From positions 1 through 32,000 of the forward strand of contig JBHLMI010000019.1 in the NCBI GenBank assembly GCA_048938295.1: DNA of 32,000 nt, written 5' to 3'. Of the stretch, positions 25,086 through 32,000 are shown one piece after another. Made by a program: the position numbers and the translations under genes. This DNA is from Promethearchaeota archaeon. GTDB lineage: Archaea; Asgardarchaeota; Hermodarchaeia; Hermodarchaeales; Hermodarchaeaceae. Each line of letters begins with the position of its first letter. The first letter of the stretch is position 1. The notes under the pieces were generated by a model, which saw nothing but the letters and a program-made list of their open reading frames with translations, had not been told where the DNA came from and made no database searches.

Positions 25086-25877
25086 TTATTGCCGAGGAAC
25101 CTCCTCATGGTTTTGTGCGGTAATGGCAACAGCAGCGAAGGCAGGATTCGATTTAGGCGGAGGGCCTCGAAAAATGATTGCTGTTTTTTCGAAAATTGCA
25201 GGGCAGATGTTATCACGAATCATTTGACTGAGTAGATCGAGTTCCCAATTGGTCAGGATTTCTGATAAGGCTGCATAGTTGAAACGTTTGCCCTGTAGCC
25301 GTTTTAAGATAGCCGTCCTTCTAGCGTCAAGGGCGTCAATGGAGATTTGTTCAAATGAGATACGATGTTTGCGCATAGCCTGTTTATCATCCTGGGTAGG
25401 AGCGTGGTCCAATGCGACGGGTGAATCAACAGAGGGCAATTCGAATGGTGGGATTGTCCGCTCTTGATTAATTAGAAAGAGTAAGGGAGTCGCGCGCCGT
25501 TTAATCTCATTGGCAAACTGAGAAATCCATTCTTCGGGAGCAATTTCAGGAGCAGCTAATTGAGAATCTCGGTGATGCTGCATTGAAGCGAGAGTATAGT
25601 AGAAACGTCCGTCAAGAGTTCGTTCCCAGGGCGTTTCGAGGATGCGATATGCATCAGCAACTTCTTCACGGTCAACCTCCGCTTCCTTAATCGGAAACGT
25701 GTTGTGCTGTTTTAGGGCAACCTCATACTTTTTGGTCAAGTTCCATAGTGTAATTACAATCCCTTTGGTTCCAAAGGATGTGAGGCGTGTTCGCTTGTAG
25801 TTGTATTGGAAGGTGTCGTACCAGGCTTTGCGGCGCGGAAAGGCACGGAGAAATGTAGAGGTATCATTGGTAATCAT
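25086..25877 (-). CDS. Hypothetical protein, putative kleisin-like SMC partner
   Basis: Translationally coupled to SMC (TAATG overlap) and lies between SMC and KITE. It has a helical N-part, a Pro-rich linker and a possible C-terminal WH ('ILKRLQGKRFNYAAL...LLSQMIRDNIC'). The kleisin call is mainly positional. Confidence 0.5.
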   Translation of the reverse strand: MITNDTSTFLRAFPRRKAWYDTFQYNYKRTRLTSFGTKGIVITLWNLTKKYEVALKQHNTFPIKEAEVDREEVADAYRILETPWERTLDGRFYYTLASMQHHRDSQLAAPEIAPEEWISQFANEIKRRATPLLFLINQERTIPPFELPSVDSPVALDHAPTQDDKQAMRKHRISFEQISIDALDARRTAILKRLQGKRFNYAALSEILTNWELDLLSQMIRDNICPAIFEKTAIIFRGPPPKSNPAFAAVAITAQNHEEVPRQ

Positions 25878-28771
25878 TAGGCTTTCACCTGTCCTTTGAT
25901 CAGCACTACGTGATGCATAGTTTCTGGAATTTCGAGTCCCACCGTGGAGGGGGCCATTAGAAGAAACTGAGGATGAATTAGTGAGTCTTCCTGGGTTAAA
26001 TCGAGAGCGCGTTGAACTACACTGAGAATAGCTGCTCGGCTTGCTTCATCGAGGCGTTGGGTAAATTCATCAATGACATGGAGGGGACTCTTGGCAAGAG
26101 TGTGGAGGGCTAAAATAAAAGTCTGGGTGGCTAGGACCCGTTCGCCTCCAGACATTTCTTGATAGGTCCGCCAGTCGCCTTTGCGGTTAATGGCAAGTTG
26201 AAGGTGCAGCTCCGCACGACTGGGTTCATCGGGGAATCGAATAAGCAGTTTGACTTGCTTAAGGAAGTGGCTGAGTAATTGGTTCATGCGGTGGTTGAGG
26301 GTTTCAACCGTCTCTTGAAGCTGCCGTCTCCACTCGAGTAGTCTTCGATCAACGTCTGTCATCAGATTTTCTAAGTGGAGCTGACGTTGTTTTAGGTAGT
26401 CTTGGAGTTGGGAGACGACTTTTTCCTGGTCTTCAAAGGCTTGCCGATCTTCTGCTGTGGCGGTGATAGTATCAATCATCGCTTGGAGTTGGATTTGTTC
26501 ATCACGAACGGCTGTAGGGTTTCGAACAGTCTGTGGACGTTCTCCCAGCGCAGTGGCAGCCTTGCGGAAGTCCTTAGTTTGTTTTATGAGATGCTCATAT
26601 TCATCTTCGCGTTGCTTGAGTTCTGCAACGAGGTGGTTGATTTCAACCTGACGACGGGATCGTCGGAGGTCAAGGTTTTGGAGTTGTTCGGATAACTTTT
26701 GCTGTCGCGAGTTCAGCGGTGATAAGTCTGAGCTACATTCTTGATAATCTTGGCTGAGTCTGTCGCATTCAGTTTCCAGTTCAAGAATCTGTTGTTGTAA
26801 TTCGGCTACGCGGTGTTCAGAACCAGTGACCAGGGCTGTTCTTTCCTCATCAGAAAGATGAGATGAGTGGACTTGCTGAAGGTCTTGGAGGGTTGCCCGT
26901 AATTGGCTTATTTCAGAATTGATATGCATGCGGTCTCGCATTAAGCGAGCTTCTTGTTCCCGAAGTTCACGGAGTTGGATGCGTGTGTCAGCGCCGTCCT
27001 GAGCTAGCCCCAAATCTTTGAGTGATACATTCAGACTGACCGTAACTGGTCGGGGTGGTCGTGCAAAGGCACCGATCCGGAGATAATGACTCGTTCCTTC
27101 GCTAGTGATAATGTTGCCATTGAGTTGCTGAGAGGCATCGACTAGCGTATTGGGGTCGGCTCCTTCCTCTGCGATGGCAGTGTTTACGACTCGACTTAGG
27201 AAACTAATGGCATAGATATCCCCTTCAATGAGATCAGCAGCCCACCCAATGACAGGTGAAGAGACCGTGGGGCGATCTCGAGCTATCGCGGTGGTGGGGT
27301 TTGTTCGGGCGACCACCAAATCTGGTTTTTCATTTGGCCAGAGATGATCATAGAGGTTTTTAGCCTCAACGAAGACCTCTCGGTTCAGGGCAATGAATGC
27401 ATAGGTGTAGCGGCCCAATGCCAGTTTGACTGCGGTTTCGTACTGTGCATACTCTGGTTTCATACGAATAAGCGTAAAAAGGGGCCCAATCACTGCATCA
27501 GAGAGTGCTAGTTTATCAAGTTCAGACCGGTAACGAAGACAGGCCCGAAGTATCGTCTCTTCAAAATGTGGATACCGTTGGGGTTGAGTAAAGAGGTGCT
27601 CCTCCGTTATGGCAATATCTTGTCGGACCTGAACAAGTTGATCATCGATACCATCCCGATCCTGTATAATCGTCGCTAATTCTCTCTGAATGTCGTCAAT
27701 TTTGCTTTTTGCGGGTTTCCGACGTTTGTTGTACCGTTCTGTTCGAGCTAGCATACCTTTGAGTTCGTTTTCTAGCCCTTGTCGATGACCTTGGGCTTGC
27801 ATCCTTTCATCGCGTATCGAGTCCATGGTTGTAAGGAGCTTTTCCCGTTTTGCTTCAATCGCTTCGAAGTTCTCTTTCAGGTTGGCTTTCCTTTCGTCTA
27901 ACTTAGCCATTTTCTCGTTTTGGTCGGTGAGTTGGGTTTCAAGGCTGGTAAGTTGCGATTGGAGTTGGCTAGCGAGTTCTTCACGATAAGTCACTTCAGC
28001 CCAGGCAGCTTCAACATCGAGATCCTTCTGCCTTTGTTGGAGTTGCTGTTTTTGCTGAAAAGCTTCATAAGCTGCCTTTAGAACCTGAAGGCGCTGTTCT
28101 TCGTGGCGGATTCGGTATTCGAGGGGTTTGACATTGGCTTTAGCCTGTAATACGAGGAGACGGGCTTCCTCGAGTTTTTCCATCCAGTTGCGGAGCCCAG
28201 TTTCGTTCAAGAGAGTCTCGAATTTCCGCCGTGGGGATTGGGAGGCAAAGTGGTCTAAAGTCTCAGCCTCAGTAACGGCTAGGGGAGAATCCCCAAAGAG
28301 TCCAGCCGCTTGAAAGAGTTTCCGAATGTCCTTCCGAGCAATTTGCTGGCCATTCAGTGAGCGTTTTCCATTCAACCAGTAGGATATCCGGTTCGTTTCA
28401 TCGACTCGAAGTCGAATCGATACAACATCCGTATCAAGAAGCGTAGACATGGCAGGATCTGGGCTTCTTAAGACACGTCGACCGTTGAGTTGGTAGTTGT
28501 TAAGTTCTAGAATGACTTCAGCATATTTGTTGAAGCGACCGATGAAGGCCGAATTGCGTTGGCGTTGGGCTCTTCGAGATTCAACGCCAATGGCGAGTAA
28601 CAGGGCGTCGAGAATCAGGGTTTTTCCGCTTCCGTTAGAACCTGTAATTAGTATGACAGGGGATTCATCGAGTTGGATTTTGGTGTCACGGTGAATGACA
28701 AAGTTCACTAGGCGGATGCTGCGAAACACGACTGATGAAGTTGATAGGGACATCTCGTGCCTAGTGGTCAT
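25877..28771 (-). CDS. SMC-family ATPase, SMC5/6-like
   Basis: N-terminal IRLVNF..H with Walker A GSNGSGKT (44-51) and ILDALLLAIG; coiled coils; hinge-like VIGPLFTLI...AVKLALG..YAF; signature MSGGER, FILALHTLAKSPLHVIDEF..RLD, and QFLLMAP in place of the His switch, as in SMC5/6; 964 aa. Confidence 0.88.
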   Translation of the reverse strand: MTTRHEMSLSTSSVVFRSIRLVNFVIHRDTKIQLDESPVILITGSNGSGKTLILDALLLAIGVESRRAQRQRNSAFIGRFNKYAEVILELNNYQLNGRRVLRSPDPAMSTLLDTDVVSIRLRVDETNRISYWLNGKRSLNGQQIARKDIRKLFQAAGLFGDSPLAVTEAETLDHFASQSPRRKFETLLNETGLRNWMEKLEEARLLVLQAKANVKPLEYRIRHEEQRLQVLKAAYEAFQQKQQLQQRQKDLDVEAAWAEVTYREELASQLQSQLTSLETQLTDQNEKMAKLDERKANLKENFEAIEAKREKLLTTMDSIRDERMQAQGHRQGLENELKGMLARTERYNKRRKPAKSKIDDIQRELATIIQDRDGIDDQLVQVRQDIAITEEHLFTQPQRYPHFEETILRACLRYRSELDKLALSDAVIGPLFTLIRMKPEYAQYETAVKLALGRYTYAFIALNREVFVEAKNLYDHLWPNEKPDLVVARTNPTTAIARDRPTVSSPVIGWAADLIEGDIYAISFLSRVVNTAIAEEGADPNTLVDASQQLNGNIITSEGTSHYLRIGAFARPPRPVTVSLNVSLKDLGLAQDGADTRIQLRELREQEARLMRDRMHINSEISQLRATLQDLQQVHSSHLSDEERTALVTGSEHRVAELQQQILELETECDRLSQDYQECSSDLSPLNSRQQKLSEQLQNLDLRRSRRQVEINHLVAELKQREDEYEHLIKQTKDFRKAATALGERPQTVRNPTAVRDEQIQLQAMIDTITATAEDRQAFEDQEKVVSQLQDYLKQRQLHLENLMTDVDRRLLEWRRQLQETVETLNHRMNQLLSHFLKQVKLLIRFPDEPSRAELHLQLAINRKGDWRTYQEMSGGERVLATQTFILALHTLAKSPLHVIDEFTQRLDEASRAAILSVVQRALDLTQEDSLIHPQFLLMAPSTVGLEIPETMHHVVLIKGQVKA

Positions 28772-29013: not shown

Positions 29014-29334
29014 TTGAGTAAAGATGAAGGATTTTGGCGCTCAATCATCGTCGATGTTGAACCCCGTCAAAAGGAATTCCGAATCGGCATTGATGAAGAT
29101 ACCCGTGTCGATGAAGTCATCCGCACTCTTGTCACCCAGGCCCGTGATGAGGGCGTCAGTATTGACGATTGGGCTAAAGCAAAAATCGGGGACCAGCGTG
29201 CAGAATTTGTGCTCATTCGTAAAGCCCCTGAACCCACCAGGTTAAGCCCAGGTGTAACCTTCGGAGAGCTGGAACCAAAAATCACAGATGATGAGTTCTT
29301 CCTCCTCGATGTTGTCCCTGAAGTCGGACAATAG
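29014..29334 (+). CDS. Ubiquitin-like (beta-grasp) protein ending in -EVGQ
   Basis: TTG start with AGGTGA SD (29002-07). Pattern beta1 SIIVDV, beta2 EFRIGI, 'DEDTRVDEVIRTL' helix, FVLIRK, 'LSPGVTFGEL..I.DDEFFLL', then PEVGQ*. Next to an E2-like gene. Confidence 0.7.
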   Translation: MSKDEGFWRSIIVDVEPRQKEFRIGIDEDTRVDEVIRTLVTQARDEGVSIDDWAKAKIGDQRAEFVLIRKAPEPTRLSPGVTFGELEPKITDDEFFLLDVVPEVGQ

Positions 29335-29385: not shown

Positions 29386-30129
29386 ATGATCCGACCAGTA
29401 TTTTCTACCGAGCTGTTTAACGCCAGAGTGGAAACCCAGATTCAGACATTCTTTGATACCATGAACAATCTCTTTGGACGACGAGGATGGGATCCAGATC
29501 CTCCGCACCGCGAAGATACCGTCTGGAGCAATCGCGATTTCACCGTTGCTATCATCGATCGATACCGTGATGGGGCGTTTAAACGGATTCGCTTCACTAT
29601 GCGTTATCTTCCCGGGTTCGTTCGTAAACCCAGAAATCTAGAGGATACAAACGCTATACGTTATGAGCATCGGTTTGTCTTTGATTTACCCCGAGAGTAT
29701 CCTCAGAACATCGGCACTATTCGACCTATAGCCGAAACACCTCTGTATCACCCCAGACTAGCGGCTAGTGGAACTGGACATGCCTGCTACTCGGTTCGTG
29801 GGGAATTAGATCGTATCCTCGAAGATCTCCCCTTTTTTGTATTGCTAAAACCAGATCGAGTAGAACCACCATCTCAGTTTCAATCTGACCACGGTCTAAA
29901 TATGGCCGCTATGGCGTGGTATGAGCAAGATACAGATAGAATCGTTGAAACCTTAGATCAGCTCTGGGAAGCCCAGCACAAAGATGGTCCAGCTGCGCCT
30001 TCACGACAGGGACGGGTGCGTATTCTTGAAACCTCATCGACTAGCGGGCATTCAGGTCGAAGGTCACCCCGCGTTTTAGATGAACCAAGTAGACATACAT
30101 CGGTTCGGATTCTAGATGATGAGAGTTAG
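29386..30129 (+). CDS. E2/UBC-fold ubiquitin-conjugating-like protein with disordered C-terminal tail
   Basis: 'FVFDLPREYPQ...ETPLYHPR...G.GHAC' (H122-P123-R124; C134 is the only Cys) and 'GLNMAAMAWYEQD' match the UBC consensus F.I..P..YP...T..YHPN...G..C...LN..AA..Y; SD AAGGAG. Confidence 0.8.
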   Translation: MIRPVFSTELFNARVETQIQTFFDTMNNLFGRRGWDPDPPHREDTVWSNRDFTVAIIDRYRDGAFKRIRFTMRYLPGFVRKPRNLEDTNAIRYEHRFVFDLPREYPQNIGTIRPIAETPLYHPRLAASGTGHACYSVRGELDRILEDLPFFVLLKPDRVEPPSQFQSDHGLNMAAMAWYEQDTDRIVETLDQLWEAQHKDGPAAPSRQGRVRILETSSTSGHSGRRSPRVLDEPSRHTSVRILDDES

Positions 30130-30143
30130 ATGAGGTACCAACC

Positions 30144-30362
30144 ATGCCGGATTCACCTTTAAAGGAGAATGACACCCCCGACGAGCATGAGGAAGAGCTT
30201 GACAAATCATCGAAGGAACCTGAGAGGAAATCGCGGATTCAGATTCTCCGAGAGAGAGACATTCCCTTTGAAGAAGAACGTCCTCCCAACTTCTCACCCT
30301 ACTATTCCATTATAATTCATGGCAAAAAGAAACGATCTGAGCTAAAGGAGCGAGAGTCATGA
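30144..30362 (+). CDS. Small charged, probably disordered protein (72 aa)
   Basis: GAGGT SD; ATGA coupling to the next gene; contains RIQILRE and SIIIH. Confidence 0.6.
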   Translation: MPDSPLKENDTPDEHEEELDKSSKEPERKSRIQILRERDIPFEEERPPNFSPYYSIIIHGKKKRSELKERES

Positions 30363-30754
30363 GTGTGCATGGTGCATCCCAAATGCGGTGTGCGGCCTGT
30401 GCCACTCAAGTTTCACTTGAAAATGCACGGAGCCAATGGTGGATTTGCACAGTCTGTGGCAGCTATGTCTGTCCTTCGTGTCGTGCCCTCTTCTTAGAAT
30501 CAGGGCAAGACACCTGCCCCGGAGCAATTGTCCGTGGCAGTGAAGCCCACTCTCCCCACTTTACTCGGTTTTTGGGCCCTCGACTGGAATCGGAAAGTCA
30601 ACCTGCTGAGACACGAAGGCCTGTGAGAATATTAGGTGATGTCTCCAGACACTCACCTCAACCACCGGGTGGAAAAGTAGTTATTCTGTCAGATGAAGAG
30701 GGAATCGAATCCAGCTCTGAAGCCGACCAAGTAGGTCGAGATAATGACGAGTAA
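30359..30754 (+). CDS. RING-like/ZZ-like Zn-finger protein with acidic SIM-like tail
   Basis: C11-x2-C14-x15-C30-x2-C33-x4-C38-x2-C41-x11-C53P-x9-H64; paralog of 23991..24452; tail has VRILGD and VVILSDEE. Confidence 0.72.
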   Translation: MSVHGASQMRCAACATQVSLENARSQWWICTVCGSYVCPSCRALFLESGQDTCPGAIVRGSEAHSPHFTRFLGPRLESESQPAETRRPVRILGDVSRHSPQPPGGKVVILSDEEGIESSSEADQVGRDNDE

Positions 30755-32000
30755 CCTCCCCCTGTCTTTAAAAATCATCGCCCCTACGAGGCAAGATGGT
30801 GTTCCTAGAGTTAAAGCCGGTCAACGCATTTCTATTCAGTTGCAACGAAAAGGTCAAGCAAAATCGAATATTAAGGTTGACAATGGGGTCGTATACATCA
30901 ATGATCCCTTCGGGCGCATGGTGAGTAAGGTCCCTTTTCATTTTGGCAAAACTAATACAGGTGAATTTAGCGTGCCACTGACGGCAAACCTGCTGTCTGG
31001 ATTCTATACAATTCTCGTTGCTTTGCAGGAAACCCGCATCAAGCTCGCCGTCGATAAGTATCCCTATCGGGGACCTCCCAACGATCATTATGTCATGGGA
31101 TGCTTTCTCTTAGAAGGAGGACATCCACCCATTGTAGTACACAGGGTCAATTATTCGGCGACCGTGAAGAACATTACACGTGCTCGAATCAGCGATGTTC
31201 GAGTCATAATCGCTGCTCCACCCTCGCTACCTCCTCGACAAACGGTTCTAGATATTAGGTTCTCTCCGAAGGATGGACAACAACAGAATGATACCATCGG
31301 AAACCAATGGATTCGATTTCGTCAAGGAAGCCTTGCTGTGGGAGAATCCTTTACTTGTGGGTACACCGCGCTCATTCGGAATCGCGCACTCCGGTATAAT
31401 ATTCCGCCAGAAACTCACAACTCAACGTTACCAGCTAATATCGTCAAGTTCACCCAACCAGAGAATTTCATCGAATCACACCACCACCTCATCAAAGATC
31501 TTGCTCGTGATATTGCAAAAAATCATTCAACACCAATACAATTTGTACAAGCAGCGATGAGGGTAATTACAAAGAAGATGCGGTATGTTCGTCAAGAGTA
31601 TGAAAGAGGAGCAGCCTACGCTATCGAAAAAGGGGTTGGTGATTGCACTGAATATGCCGCTCTATTTGCTGCGTTGTGTCGTGCGAACAAAATCCCAGCC
31701 CGATTGGAGGCAGGCTATGCCTTTGATGGACAGTCCTGGGAACGCCATGCTTGGAGTGAAATTTGGATTCGGGGCCAATGGATCCCGGTTGATCCAACCT
31801 GGCATGGGGCTATGGGATTATTGGGAGTGACAAACCGACATATTCCTCTTATCATTGGAAACTGGATGGATACTCGCATCCGCCAAGAATTCAAAGTCAG
31901 CTGGTACTCTGATACTGTTGCTCTTGATGGAAAAAAGGGTGAGCGTTCTGAGCCCAAGATTGAGACGGGGTGGAAGGTGAAACGGGTGGTGGGTGTCCCT
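30744..32000 (+). CDS. Transglutaminase-like (Cys-His-Asp) protein, 3' truncated
   Basis: Not in the ORF track. I traced an open frame from ATG 30744 to the window end (419 codons, no stop). It contains GVGDCTEYAALFAALCRANKIPAR, RHAWSEIW and WIPVDPTW (C301, H335, D350), overlaps the previous gene by 11 nt, and has no obvious signal peptide. Confidence 0.85.
   Translation, partial: MTSNLPLSLKIIAPTRQDGVPRVKAGQRISIQLQRKGQAKSNIKVDNGVVYINDPFGRMVSKVPFHFGKTNTGEFSVPLTANLLSGFYTILVALQETRIKLAVDKYPYRGPPNDHYVMGCFLLEGGHPPIVVHRVNYSATVKNITRARISDVRVIIAAPPSLPPRQTVLDIRFSPKDGQQQNDTIGNQWIRFRQGSLAVGESFTCGYTALIRNRALRYNIPPETHNSTLPANIVKFTQPENFIESHHHLIKDLARDIAKNHSTPIQFVQAAMRVITKKMRYVRQEYERGAAYAIEKGVGDCTEYAALFAALCRANKIPARLEAGYAFDGQSWERHAWSEIWIRGQWIPVDPTWHGAMGLLGVTNRHIPLIIGNWMDTRIRQEFKVSWYSDTVALDGKKGERSEPKIETGWKVKRVVGVP

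Follow-up and report, generated by a model that had tools for sequence, protein, structure and literature searches.

What do six similar hydrophobic peptides do in the tails of three consecutive proteins encoded beside a ubiquitin-like protein (Ubl) gene in an archaeon? The peptides were found in a Promethearchaeota archaeon, in a stretch of 32,000 nucleotides (contig JBHLMI010000019.1, positions 1 to 32,000; hereafter the window), and they were carried by a conjugating enzyme (E2)-like protein, a protein of 72 amino acids (aa), and a Zn-finger protein. Judged from their conservation, the view that the six peptides represented genuine, functional short linear motifs was supported; the motif would most likely dock its carriers onto the Ubl by the kind of logic known from the SUMO-interacting motif (SIM), the LC3-interacting region (LIR), and the UFM1-interacting motif (UFIM), a reading that we put at roughly even odds (probability about 0.5).

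Translation of the three open reading frames (ORFs), all on the forward strand, placed the six peptides where the initial annotation had reported them: (i) three in the tail of the 247-aa E2-like protein (29386..30129), namely VRIL at residue 211 (30016..30027; family consensus G-R-V-x-I-L), PRVL at residue 228 (30067..30078; consensus P-R-I-L-D), and VRIL followed by DDES at residue 240 (30103..30114; near or at the C-terminus across the E2 family); (ii) one in the 72-aa protein (30144..30362), namely IQIL at residue 32 (30237..30248; consensus R-I-V-I-L-x-E-R-D); and (iii) two, 14 residues apart, in the tail of the 131-aa Zn-finger protein (30359..30754), namely VRIL followed by GDV at residue 89 (30623..30634; L92 invariant, D94 and V95 nearly so) and GGKVVIL followed by SDEE, with VVIL at residue 107 (30677..30688; G105 and V107 invariant, L110 and D112 nearly so). 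Five copies (VRIL three times, IQIL, and VVIL) matched [VI]-x-[VI]-[VIL], and PRVL was a partial match, just as had been claimed; the same five had the SIM core of at least three hydrophobic residues, mainly V/I/L, in four positions, which held in the orthologues too, while PRVL had two such residues.

Chance accounted poorly for this density: when the three tails were shuffled 200,000 times with their composition preserved, the mean was 0.26 matches, compared with the five observed (P ~5e-6). In the crude proteome of this genome (~741,000 residues), [VI][RKQV]IL occurred 171 times (about one per 4,300 residues) and VRIL 24 times, three of them in this operon; of all motif contexts in this proteome, those in the operon proteins were the most polar. 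Only three proteins had more than one motif in a polar, disordered-looking context: the E2, the Zn finger, and the small subunit of DNA polymerase D, one of whose two matches was the first strand of its oligonucleotide-binding (OB) fold. This polymerase subunit (G000:C47:72968-74512, L047; Pfam DNA_pol_E_B, Metallophos, and OB fold) had DIRIIKD at about residue 102 in its N-terminal linker, and from its sequence it may read the Ubl or be a client of the system, or the match may be due to chance.

The E2 family was surveyed in 400 sampled Asgard genomes, and it was present in 32 of them, belonging to only four families: f1 (18/18), f2 (1/1), f11 (2/2), and f12 (10/12). The initial annotation had proposed that the motifs, if real, should be conserved in orthologues despite tail divergence, and this was what the alignments gave, with 74-85% identity in the motif columns vs. 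34-47% in the linkers: 0.85 vs. 0.40 for the E2 (25 orthologues) and 0.74 vs. 0.34 for the E2 across the four families, 0.81 vs. 0.47 for the Zn-finger tails (n = 17), and 0.79 vs. 0.38 for the small protein (n = 20 copies). Within f1, the E2 tails aligned at G-R-V-x-I-L, P-R-I-L-D, and V-R-I-L-D, and the intervening residues varied freely. The f12 counterparts were the most instructive, as their E2 was only ~34% identical and its tail again held three copies: GIKII; IRIM, IRII, or VKII; and a C-terminal GVRII. The f12 small protein had IKII or IKIL ahead of the same ERD...PPN block, the f12 Zn finger had two adjacent copies (VKIL and then VRIL or IKVI), and the f12 transglutaminase-like enzyme had two copies past its catalytic core (IKIL or VKII, and then IKIL). 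The location of the copies in disordered tails, also claimed initially, was borne out by a structure model for the E2 (predicted local distance difference test [pLDDT] <50 at residues 202-227 and 229-247), and for the other two proteins it was deduced from composition together with orthologue divergence.

Position 2 of the motif was mostly Arg or Lys (Arg, Gln, or Val in f1; Lys in many other lineages), and the N-terminal flank was basic or Gly-rich, giving a probable consensus of (Gly or basic)-[VIL]-[K/R/Q/V]-[I/V]-[L/I]-(D/E/G/S). The acidic or Ser flank that had been described was present in this genome, where D/E/S followed five of the six copies (IQIL being followed by Arg-Glu), and it did not extend to f12, in which the tails were Lys-rich and one copy ended the protein. 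The frequent Lys at position 2, along with the protease-like enzyme in the operon, would suit peptides that are acted upon, i.e., cleavage or recognition sites for the JAB-domain or transglutaminase-like enzyme, or acceptors of auto-modification; this was considered extremely improbable, because a position 2 of Arg, Gln, or Val in f1 left a Lys acceptor unconserved and the f12 transglutaminase-like enzyme itself carried the motif. Two sequence patterns were tried against the copies and rejected: (i) the SUMOylation consensus psi-K-x-E, which did not fit in register and for which f1 used Arg, Gln, or Val; and (ii) an amyloid core like that of the RIP homotypic interaction motif (I/V-Q-I/V-G), brought to mind by VQIL and IQIL, from which the copies differed in having L/I, not G, at position 4 and a mostly charged residue at position 2.

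The motif was also traced in further lineages. Metagenomic contig L041, from another lineage, encoded a RING-like finger, a JAB protein, an activating enzyme (E1), a Ubl ending in VG plus three residues, an E2, the small protein, and a transglutaminase-like enzyme, with three motif copies in the E2, one in the small protein, and two in the transglutaminase-like enzyme. High-GC contig L044 had two copies in its E2 tail, and its small protein, of 59 aa, also bore the motif. On this same contig, the Ubl and the E2 lay in one frame without a stop (L044:8-901, P0077; ..VVGG and then the E2 N-terminus), apparently a natural fusion or a read-through, which would need cleavage after VG. A profile search with the E2 family over 1.84 billion cluster representatives returned only 55 clusters; the strict motif was found in 16 of the 29 representatives whose tails had six or more residues, compared with 1.3 expected from shuffles, and most of the remaining tailed representatives displayed near variants. 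The motif usually lay at the very C-terminus behind a Lys/Arg-rich linker, and this was the most widespread copy. By its distribution across these sequences, the motif appears to be an old hallmark of the E2 family and its partner proteins, extending beyond one genome.

Two further members of the E2 family were observed in other settings: (i) one ending in RMRILD (L045:2801-3379, P0092) was encoded among many tiny ORFs of one orientation, on a contig of viral or mobile appearance, and may be a hijacked copy keeping the motif; and (ii) a distant member (L042:1081-1827, P0087), with no Ubl gene nearby, had Ala where the catalytic Cys would be, as in a ubiquitin E2 variant, and a C-terminal LKIL followed by DDESL.

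The distribution of the motif over the proteins of the system bore on its partner. The motif scan found no copy in the Ubl, E1, or JAB protein of this genome, and in the neighboring operon of a structural maintenance of chromosomes (SMC)-like ATPase only the SMC protein gave a loose match (PVIL, residue 38), which lay within its folded N-terminal ATPase domain, the other three proteins giving none; in f12, the Ubl, E1, JAB, and SMC-operon proteins likewise had no copy in a disordered context. Since the carriers shared the motif, their common hub should be among these non-carriers. The transglutaminase-like enzyme could not be dismissed as a hub by absence from f12, where it was present; that it carried the motif itself there speaks against it. 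In f1, this enzyme had a weak element after its catalytic core, W-K-V-x-[RKQ]-[VI]-[VI]-[GS] (here VKRVV, 31977-31991), possibly what is left, in degenerate or structured form, of the two clear motifs seen in f12 and L041; some f1 genomes had a short, 290-aa form of the enzyme without the N-terminal domain. A motif confined to the carriers, often in tandem and on flexible linkers, would also be expected if the copies paired with one another, forming intermolecular beta-sheets that cluster the carriers into a particle or condensate with no separate hub. Such pairing was judged very unlikely: the conserved Arg/Lys at position 2 and the basic N-terminal flanks would repel each other, the tails were highly charged and predicted to be disordered, and solo E2s with a single C-terminal copy would have no pairing partner.

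Among the non-carriers, the Ubl was favored as the hub because all carriers must handle it. Docking onto the Ubl would work as follows: the six peptides would be copies of one conserved docking motif in the disordered tails of Ubl-conjugation components; each copy would fold on binding into a short beta-strand, and this strand would add non-covalently to the sheet of the Ubl at an exposed edge, namely beta2, which lies next to alpha1; free, thioester-linked, or substrate-attached Ubl would be held near the E2, the ligase (E3), and the protease/ligase; and tandem copies would give multivalent binding.

The Ubl itself (106 aa; 29014..29334, forward strand) gave an AlphaFold2 model of the beta-grasp fold (pLDDT 85.6). 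Foldseek matched this model at probability 1.0, with target TM-scores of 0.7-0.79, to ubiquitin, SUMO, FAT10, NEDD8, ISG15, and Caldiarchaeum ubiquitin; the VIA Z values were 9.3-10.6, and SUMO1 (Z 9.4-9.7) was tied with ubiquitin, FAT10, ISG15, and others. Because the structural scores to many beta-grasp proteins tied, the model identifies the 106-aa protein as a Ubl but not as a specifically SUMO-like one. No significant sequence match to the Ubl was obtained in Pfam, among PDB chains, or with any solved Ubl, and a feature search of the ESM Atlas brought up nothing beyond generic ubiquitin-fold domains, with scores <0.9, which was uninformative on SUMO-likeness. An identity with Ufm1 was rejected, since PF03671 had no match in the genome (91.6% complete), the Ubl included. 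The C-terminus (29323-29334) displayed an invariant Val-Gly followed by zero to three variable residues (Q here; K, L, F, I, QKQ, VLP, FSS, IK, SNP, or none elsewhere), so from its sequence the Ubl looks like a precursor needing trimming, which speaks against the terminal Gln as the reactive residue. The Ubl was acidic (24 D/E vs. 15 K/R; isoelectric point 4.5) and the motif was basic at position 2 and in its N-terminal flank, which made for a charge fit; residues F22 and R23 on beta2 and V35 and V40 on alpha1 were invariant across families. This charge fit, these invariant beta2/alpha1 residues, and the shared handling of the Ubl were consistency arguments, in keeping with docking onto the Ubl.

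Several points weighed against docking onto the Ubl. The choice of partner rested on parsimony, the Ubl being the most economical hub. Most of the invariant charged residues of the Ubl (E16, R18, E46, K57, R69, K70, E94, and D99) lay outside beta2/alpha1, and some E2 relatives with the C-terminal motif were encoded apart from any Ubl gene. The motif departed from a SIM in its conserved basic position 2, its basic or Gly-rich N-terminal flank, and an acidic or phosphorylatable stretch that was unconserved outside f1; moreover, it cannot be taken for granted that the Ubl has a groove of the SUMO type with its basic sub-site, because the Ubl had no sequence relation to SUMO and its structural scores tied with those of many beta-grasp proteins. 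An SMC orthologue was present in all five tested genomes with the system, so that a test by absence could not discriminate docking on an SMC subunit. Complex prediction of the Ubl with E2 tail residues 200-247 gave a score of 0.24 against a mark of 0.32, in a run without controls, and speaks neither for nor against contact. The initial designation of the peptides as SIM-type motifs was therefore kept in part: the hydrophobic core and the disordered tail stood, while the acidic flank was limited to f1 and the Ubl was not specifically SUMO-like; the motif is SIM-like in logic and should not be filed as a SIM.

The SMC operon offered a second candidate hub. Its SMC-like ATPase gene (25877..28771, reverse strand; PF02463, E 6.3e-22) was accompanied by genes for a 263-aa kleisin-like protein, a winged-helix KITE-like protein, and a RING-like partner, and the operon was the divergent neighbor of the Ubl genes in each of the 16 f1 loci whose flanking sequence sufficed. 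In f12, the SMC operon lay directly upstream of, and co-directional with, JAB-E1-Ubl-E2: this cluster (L038 and L039, L038 being G085:C33:9000-28500) opened with the SMC gene and two genes of unassigned product, continued with those for a RING-like finger, JAB, E1, Ubl, and E2, and ended its co-directional run with that for the small protein; after a few unrelated genes the Zn-finger orthologue and the transglutaminase-like enzyme followed, the latter 8-16 kb away on the same contig. In L041, JAB-E1-Ubl-E2 came after a RING-like gene similar to the one that closes the SMC operon. Linkage of the Ubl system to the SMC operon was seen in two families plus one additional lineage. By docking on a subunit encoded in the SMC operon, an alternative for which the initial annotation had named the SMC or KITE subunit, the motif might tether the E2, the E3, and the transglutaminase-like enzyme to an SMC5/6-like complex, which would agree with this linkage, with the SMC orthologue in every tested genome having the system, and with SMC-operon proteins that, as expected for a hub, had no copy in a disordered tail. 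We consider this tethering unlikely: the SMC gene was on another contig in f2 and was not adjacent in f11, and the motifs persisted in both; solo E2 relatives kept the C-terminal motif in unrelated neighborhoods; and no SMC-complex subunit is known to bind partners through such a strand motif.

The E1 was the remaining non-carrier with a claim as hub. It consisted of 287 aa with a ThiF domain only (PF00899, E 6.2e-35), and having no ubiquitin-fold domain, it needs another device for E2 recruitment; in the UFM1 pathway, short linear tail sequences recruit both the Ubl and the E2 to the E1 UBA5. The motif could accordingly be an assembly handle within the enzyme set, binding the E1 or the backside sheet of the E2 core, with the carriers alternating on one surface, and the wide distribution of the C-terminal E2 copy and the absence of the motif from the E1 would both fit an E1 hub. 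This handle was held to be distinctly unlikely, as there was no obvious reason for the finger, the protease/ligase, and the small protein all to bind the E1, and in the full-length E2 model the tail was undocked from its own core, which is weak evidence against the E2 core as hub.

Docking onto the Ubl was further compared with known modifier systems. A SIM has three or more V/I/L residues in its core, lies in disorder, has an acidic or phosphorylatable flank meeting SUMO1 Lys39/Lys46, and adds a strand to beta2 (PMC12751080); SIMs occur on the SUMO E1 (SAE2), E3s, proteases, and SUMO-targeted ubiquitin ligases (STUbLs), and tandem SIMs give E3 function (ZNF451) or poly-SUMO reading, the carriers reviewed being SAE2, PIAS, RanBP2, ZNF451, Nse2, and RNF4 (PMC12751080). 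Nse2 has SIMs within Smc5/6 (PMC8636563). The Asgard motif resembled SIMs in lying in disorder, in occurring on several proteins of the pathway, often in tandem, and, in f1, in preceding D/E/S like a parallel SIM; as with the SIMs of Nse2 in Smc5/6, the proteins carrying it adjoined an SMC5/6-like operon. The Zn-finger protein joined a RING-like finger with two close motifs, similar to ZNF451 and RNF4, and the domain order of RNF4 is reversed relative to it. Unlike in the SUMO system, the Asgard E2 itself carried the motif; Ubc9 binds SUMO non-covalently by its backside surface and not by a SIM (titles of PDB 2uyz and 2pe6). A further resemblance to tandem-SIM ligases was seen in the 72-aa protein, whose motif preceded a conserved Pro-rich block and then a second strand-like block.

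Further parallels were offered by the ATG8 and UFM1 systems, in which the LIR/ATG8-interacting motif (AIM) and the UFM1-interacting sequence of UBA5 are strand motifs in flexible regions of conjugation enzymes (E1, E2, or protease) and pair with beta2 of the Ubl. The Asgard motif likewise lay in flexible regions of conjugation enzymes, and, as in the UFM1 system, the Asgard Ubl, once trimmed, would have a single C-terminal Gly after Val and the E1 was short and ThiF-only. The differences were that (i) unlike the LIR/AIM ([W/F/Y]-x-x-[L/I/V]), no Asgard copy or orthologue had an aromatic residue at position 1, and (ii) the Asgard E2 kept HPR, an HPN-like element.

With the operon of Caldiarchaeum subterraneum (Ub, E1, E2, small RING finger, and Rpn11/JAB), the Asgard locus shared a compact set of Ubl, E1, E2, RING-like finger, and JAB, and Caldiarchaeum ubiquitin (6fnn_C, Z 10.3) was among the best structural matches of the Asgard Ubl. 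The Asgard locus differed in its Ubl family (VG end, no sequence match), in its 55-cluster E2 family, in the added transglutaminase-like enzyme and small protein, in the linkage to an SMC operon, and in the common tail motif; we know of no such tail motif in the Caldiarchaeum operon.

Linear motifs that bind Ubls (SIM, LIR/AIM, and UFIM) are regarded as eukaryotic wiring of modifier pathways. If the Asgard motif binds the Ubl, motif-based reading of modifiers would be older than eukaryotes and would have existed beside a complex that in eukaryotes carries the SUMO ligase Nse2. According to an SMC-evolution preprint, the RING of Nse1 is a eukaryotic innovation and Nse2 is an addition recruited on the way to eukaryotes (bioRxiv 10.1101/2024.01.07.573240). 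A fuller version, in which Asgard archaea would have a SUMO-like circuit around an SMC5/6-like complex, with the Ubl read multivalently by SIM-type motifs on the E2, on a tandem-motif RING-like E3 (STUbL/Nse2-like), on a small co-factor, and on a protease, appeared doubtful; were it true, motif-based reading of a modifier at the SMC complex would predate eukaryotes. A literature search of incomplete coverage returned no description of the motif, of the Ubl or E2 family, or of an Asgard link to an SMC5/6-like operon.

The gene row completed the picture. Five genes from position 29014 to the end of the window shared one direction: those for the Ubl, the E2, the 72-aa protein, the Zn-finger protein, whose start overlapped the stop of the 72-aa protein gene, and the 533-aa transglutaminase-like enzyme (30744..32000, continuing to contig position 32345, forward strand; PF01841, E 1.9e-24). 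The E1 gene was convergent with the transglutaminase-like gene and ended 4 nucleotides past it, and downstream of the transglutaminase-like gene the gene for the JAB-domain protein (PF14464, E 4.9e-09) overlapped the start of the E1 gene. The locus encodes a full Ubl cascade, composed of a beta-grasp Ubl, a ThiF-type E1, a UBC-fold E2, a RING-like finger, a JAB protein, and a transglutaminase-like enzyme. The nearest homologues of the window proteins came from Promethearchaeota or Hodarchaeota archaeon records, and PADLOC applied to the window proteins matched only the SMC protein, through generic SMC/ABC-type ATPase models.

The E2 comprised a UBC-fold core (about residues 8-200), which was modelled at high confidence, and the disordered tail (residues 202-247). 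Among the 50 Foldseek PDB matches listed, 49 were E2 enzymes and one was 8qat_D, the E2-variant Fts in the Fts-Hook3-FHIP1B complex; Ubc9 was the nominal top match (E 1.7e-4) but was inseparable from Ube2G1 or Cdc34, the TM-scores being 0.45-0.53. HPR at residues 122-124 and Cys134 were invariant in 29 E2 sequences of the four families, fitting the HPN...Cys layout of E2s. The Pfam family UQ_con was not matched, and no significant Pfam or PDB sequence match was found for this protein; since the TM-scores were modest and UQ_con was unmatched, the model identifies the 247-aa protein as a divergent UBC-fold E2.

The Zn-finger protein had nine invariant Cys/His residues across the orthologue alignment, in a RING-like arrangement (residues 11-67) upstream of the tail; a RING finger holds its two zinc ions by eight cross-braced Cys/His ligands. 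Its Pfam matches to RING, FYVE, and zf-UDP were all under the curated cut-offs, and its PDB profile matches to RBBP6 and MAT1 were non-significant; given the Cys/His pattern, "RING-like" seems a reasonable label. The 72-aa protein, which was conserved in the four families, L041, and L044, was composed of a variable acidic N-terminal part, the motif, and then a conserved block (ERDIPFEEERPPNFSP...H), within which P47, P48, and N49 (PPN) were invariant in 20 sequences; residues 36-59 (30249-30320) followed the pattern E-R-D-I-P-F-E-E-E-R-P-P-N-F-S-P and then [FY]-x-[VI]-x-[VI]-H. In the f12 cluster, a gene between that for the small protein and the Zn-finger/transglutaminase pair encoded an aromatic amino-acid lyase (L021:2665-3714; PF00221, E 1e-97) with an inserted rubredoxin domain (PF00301, E 1.6e-15).

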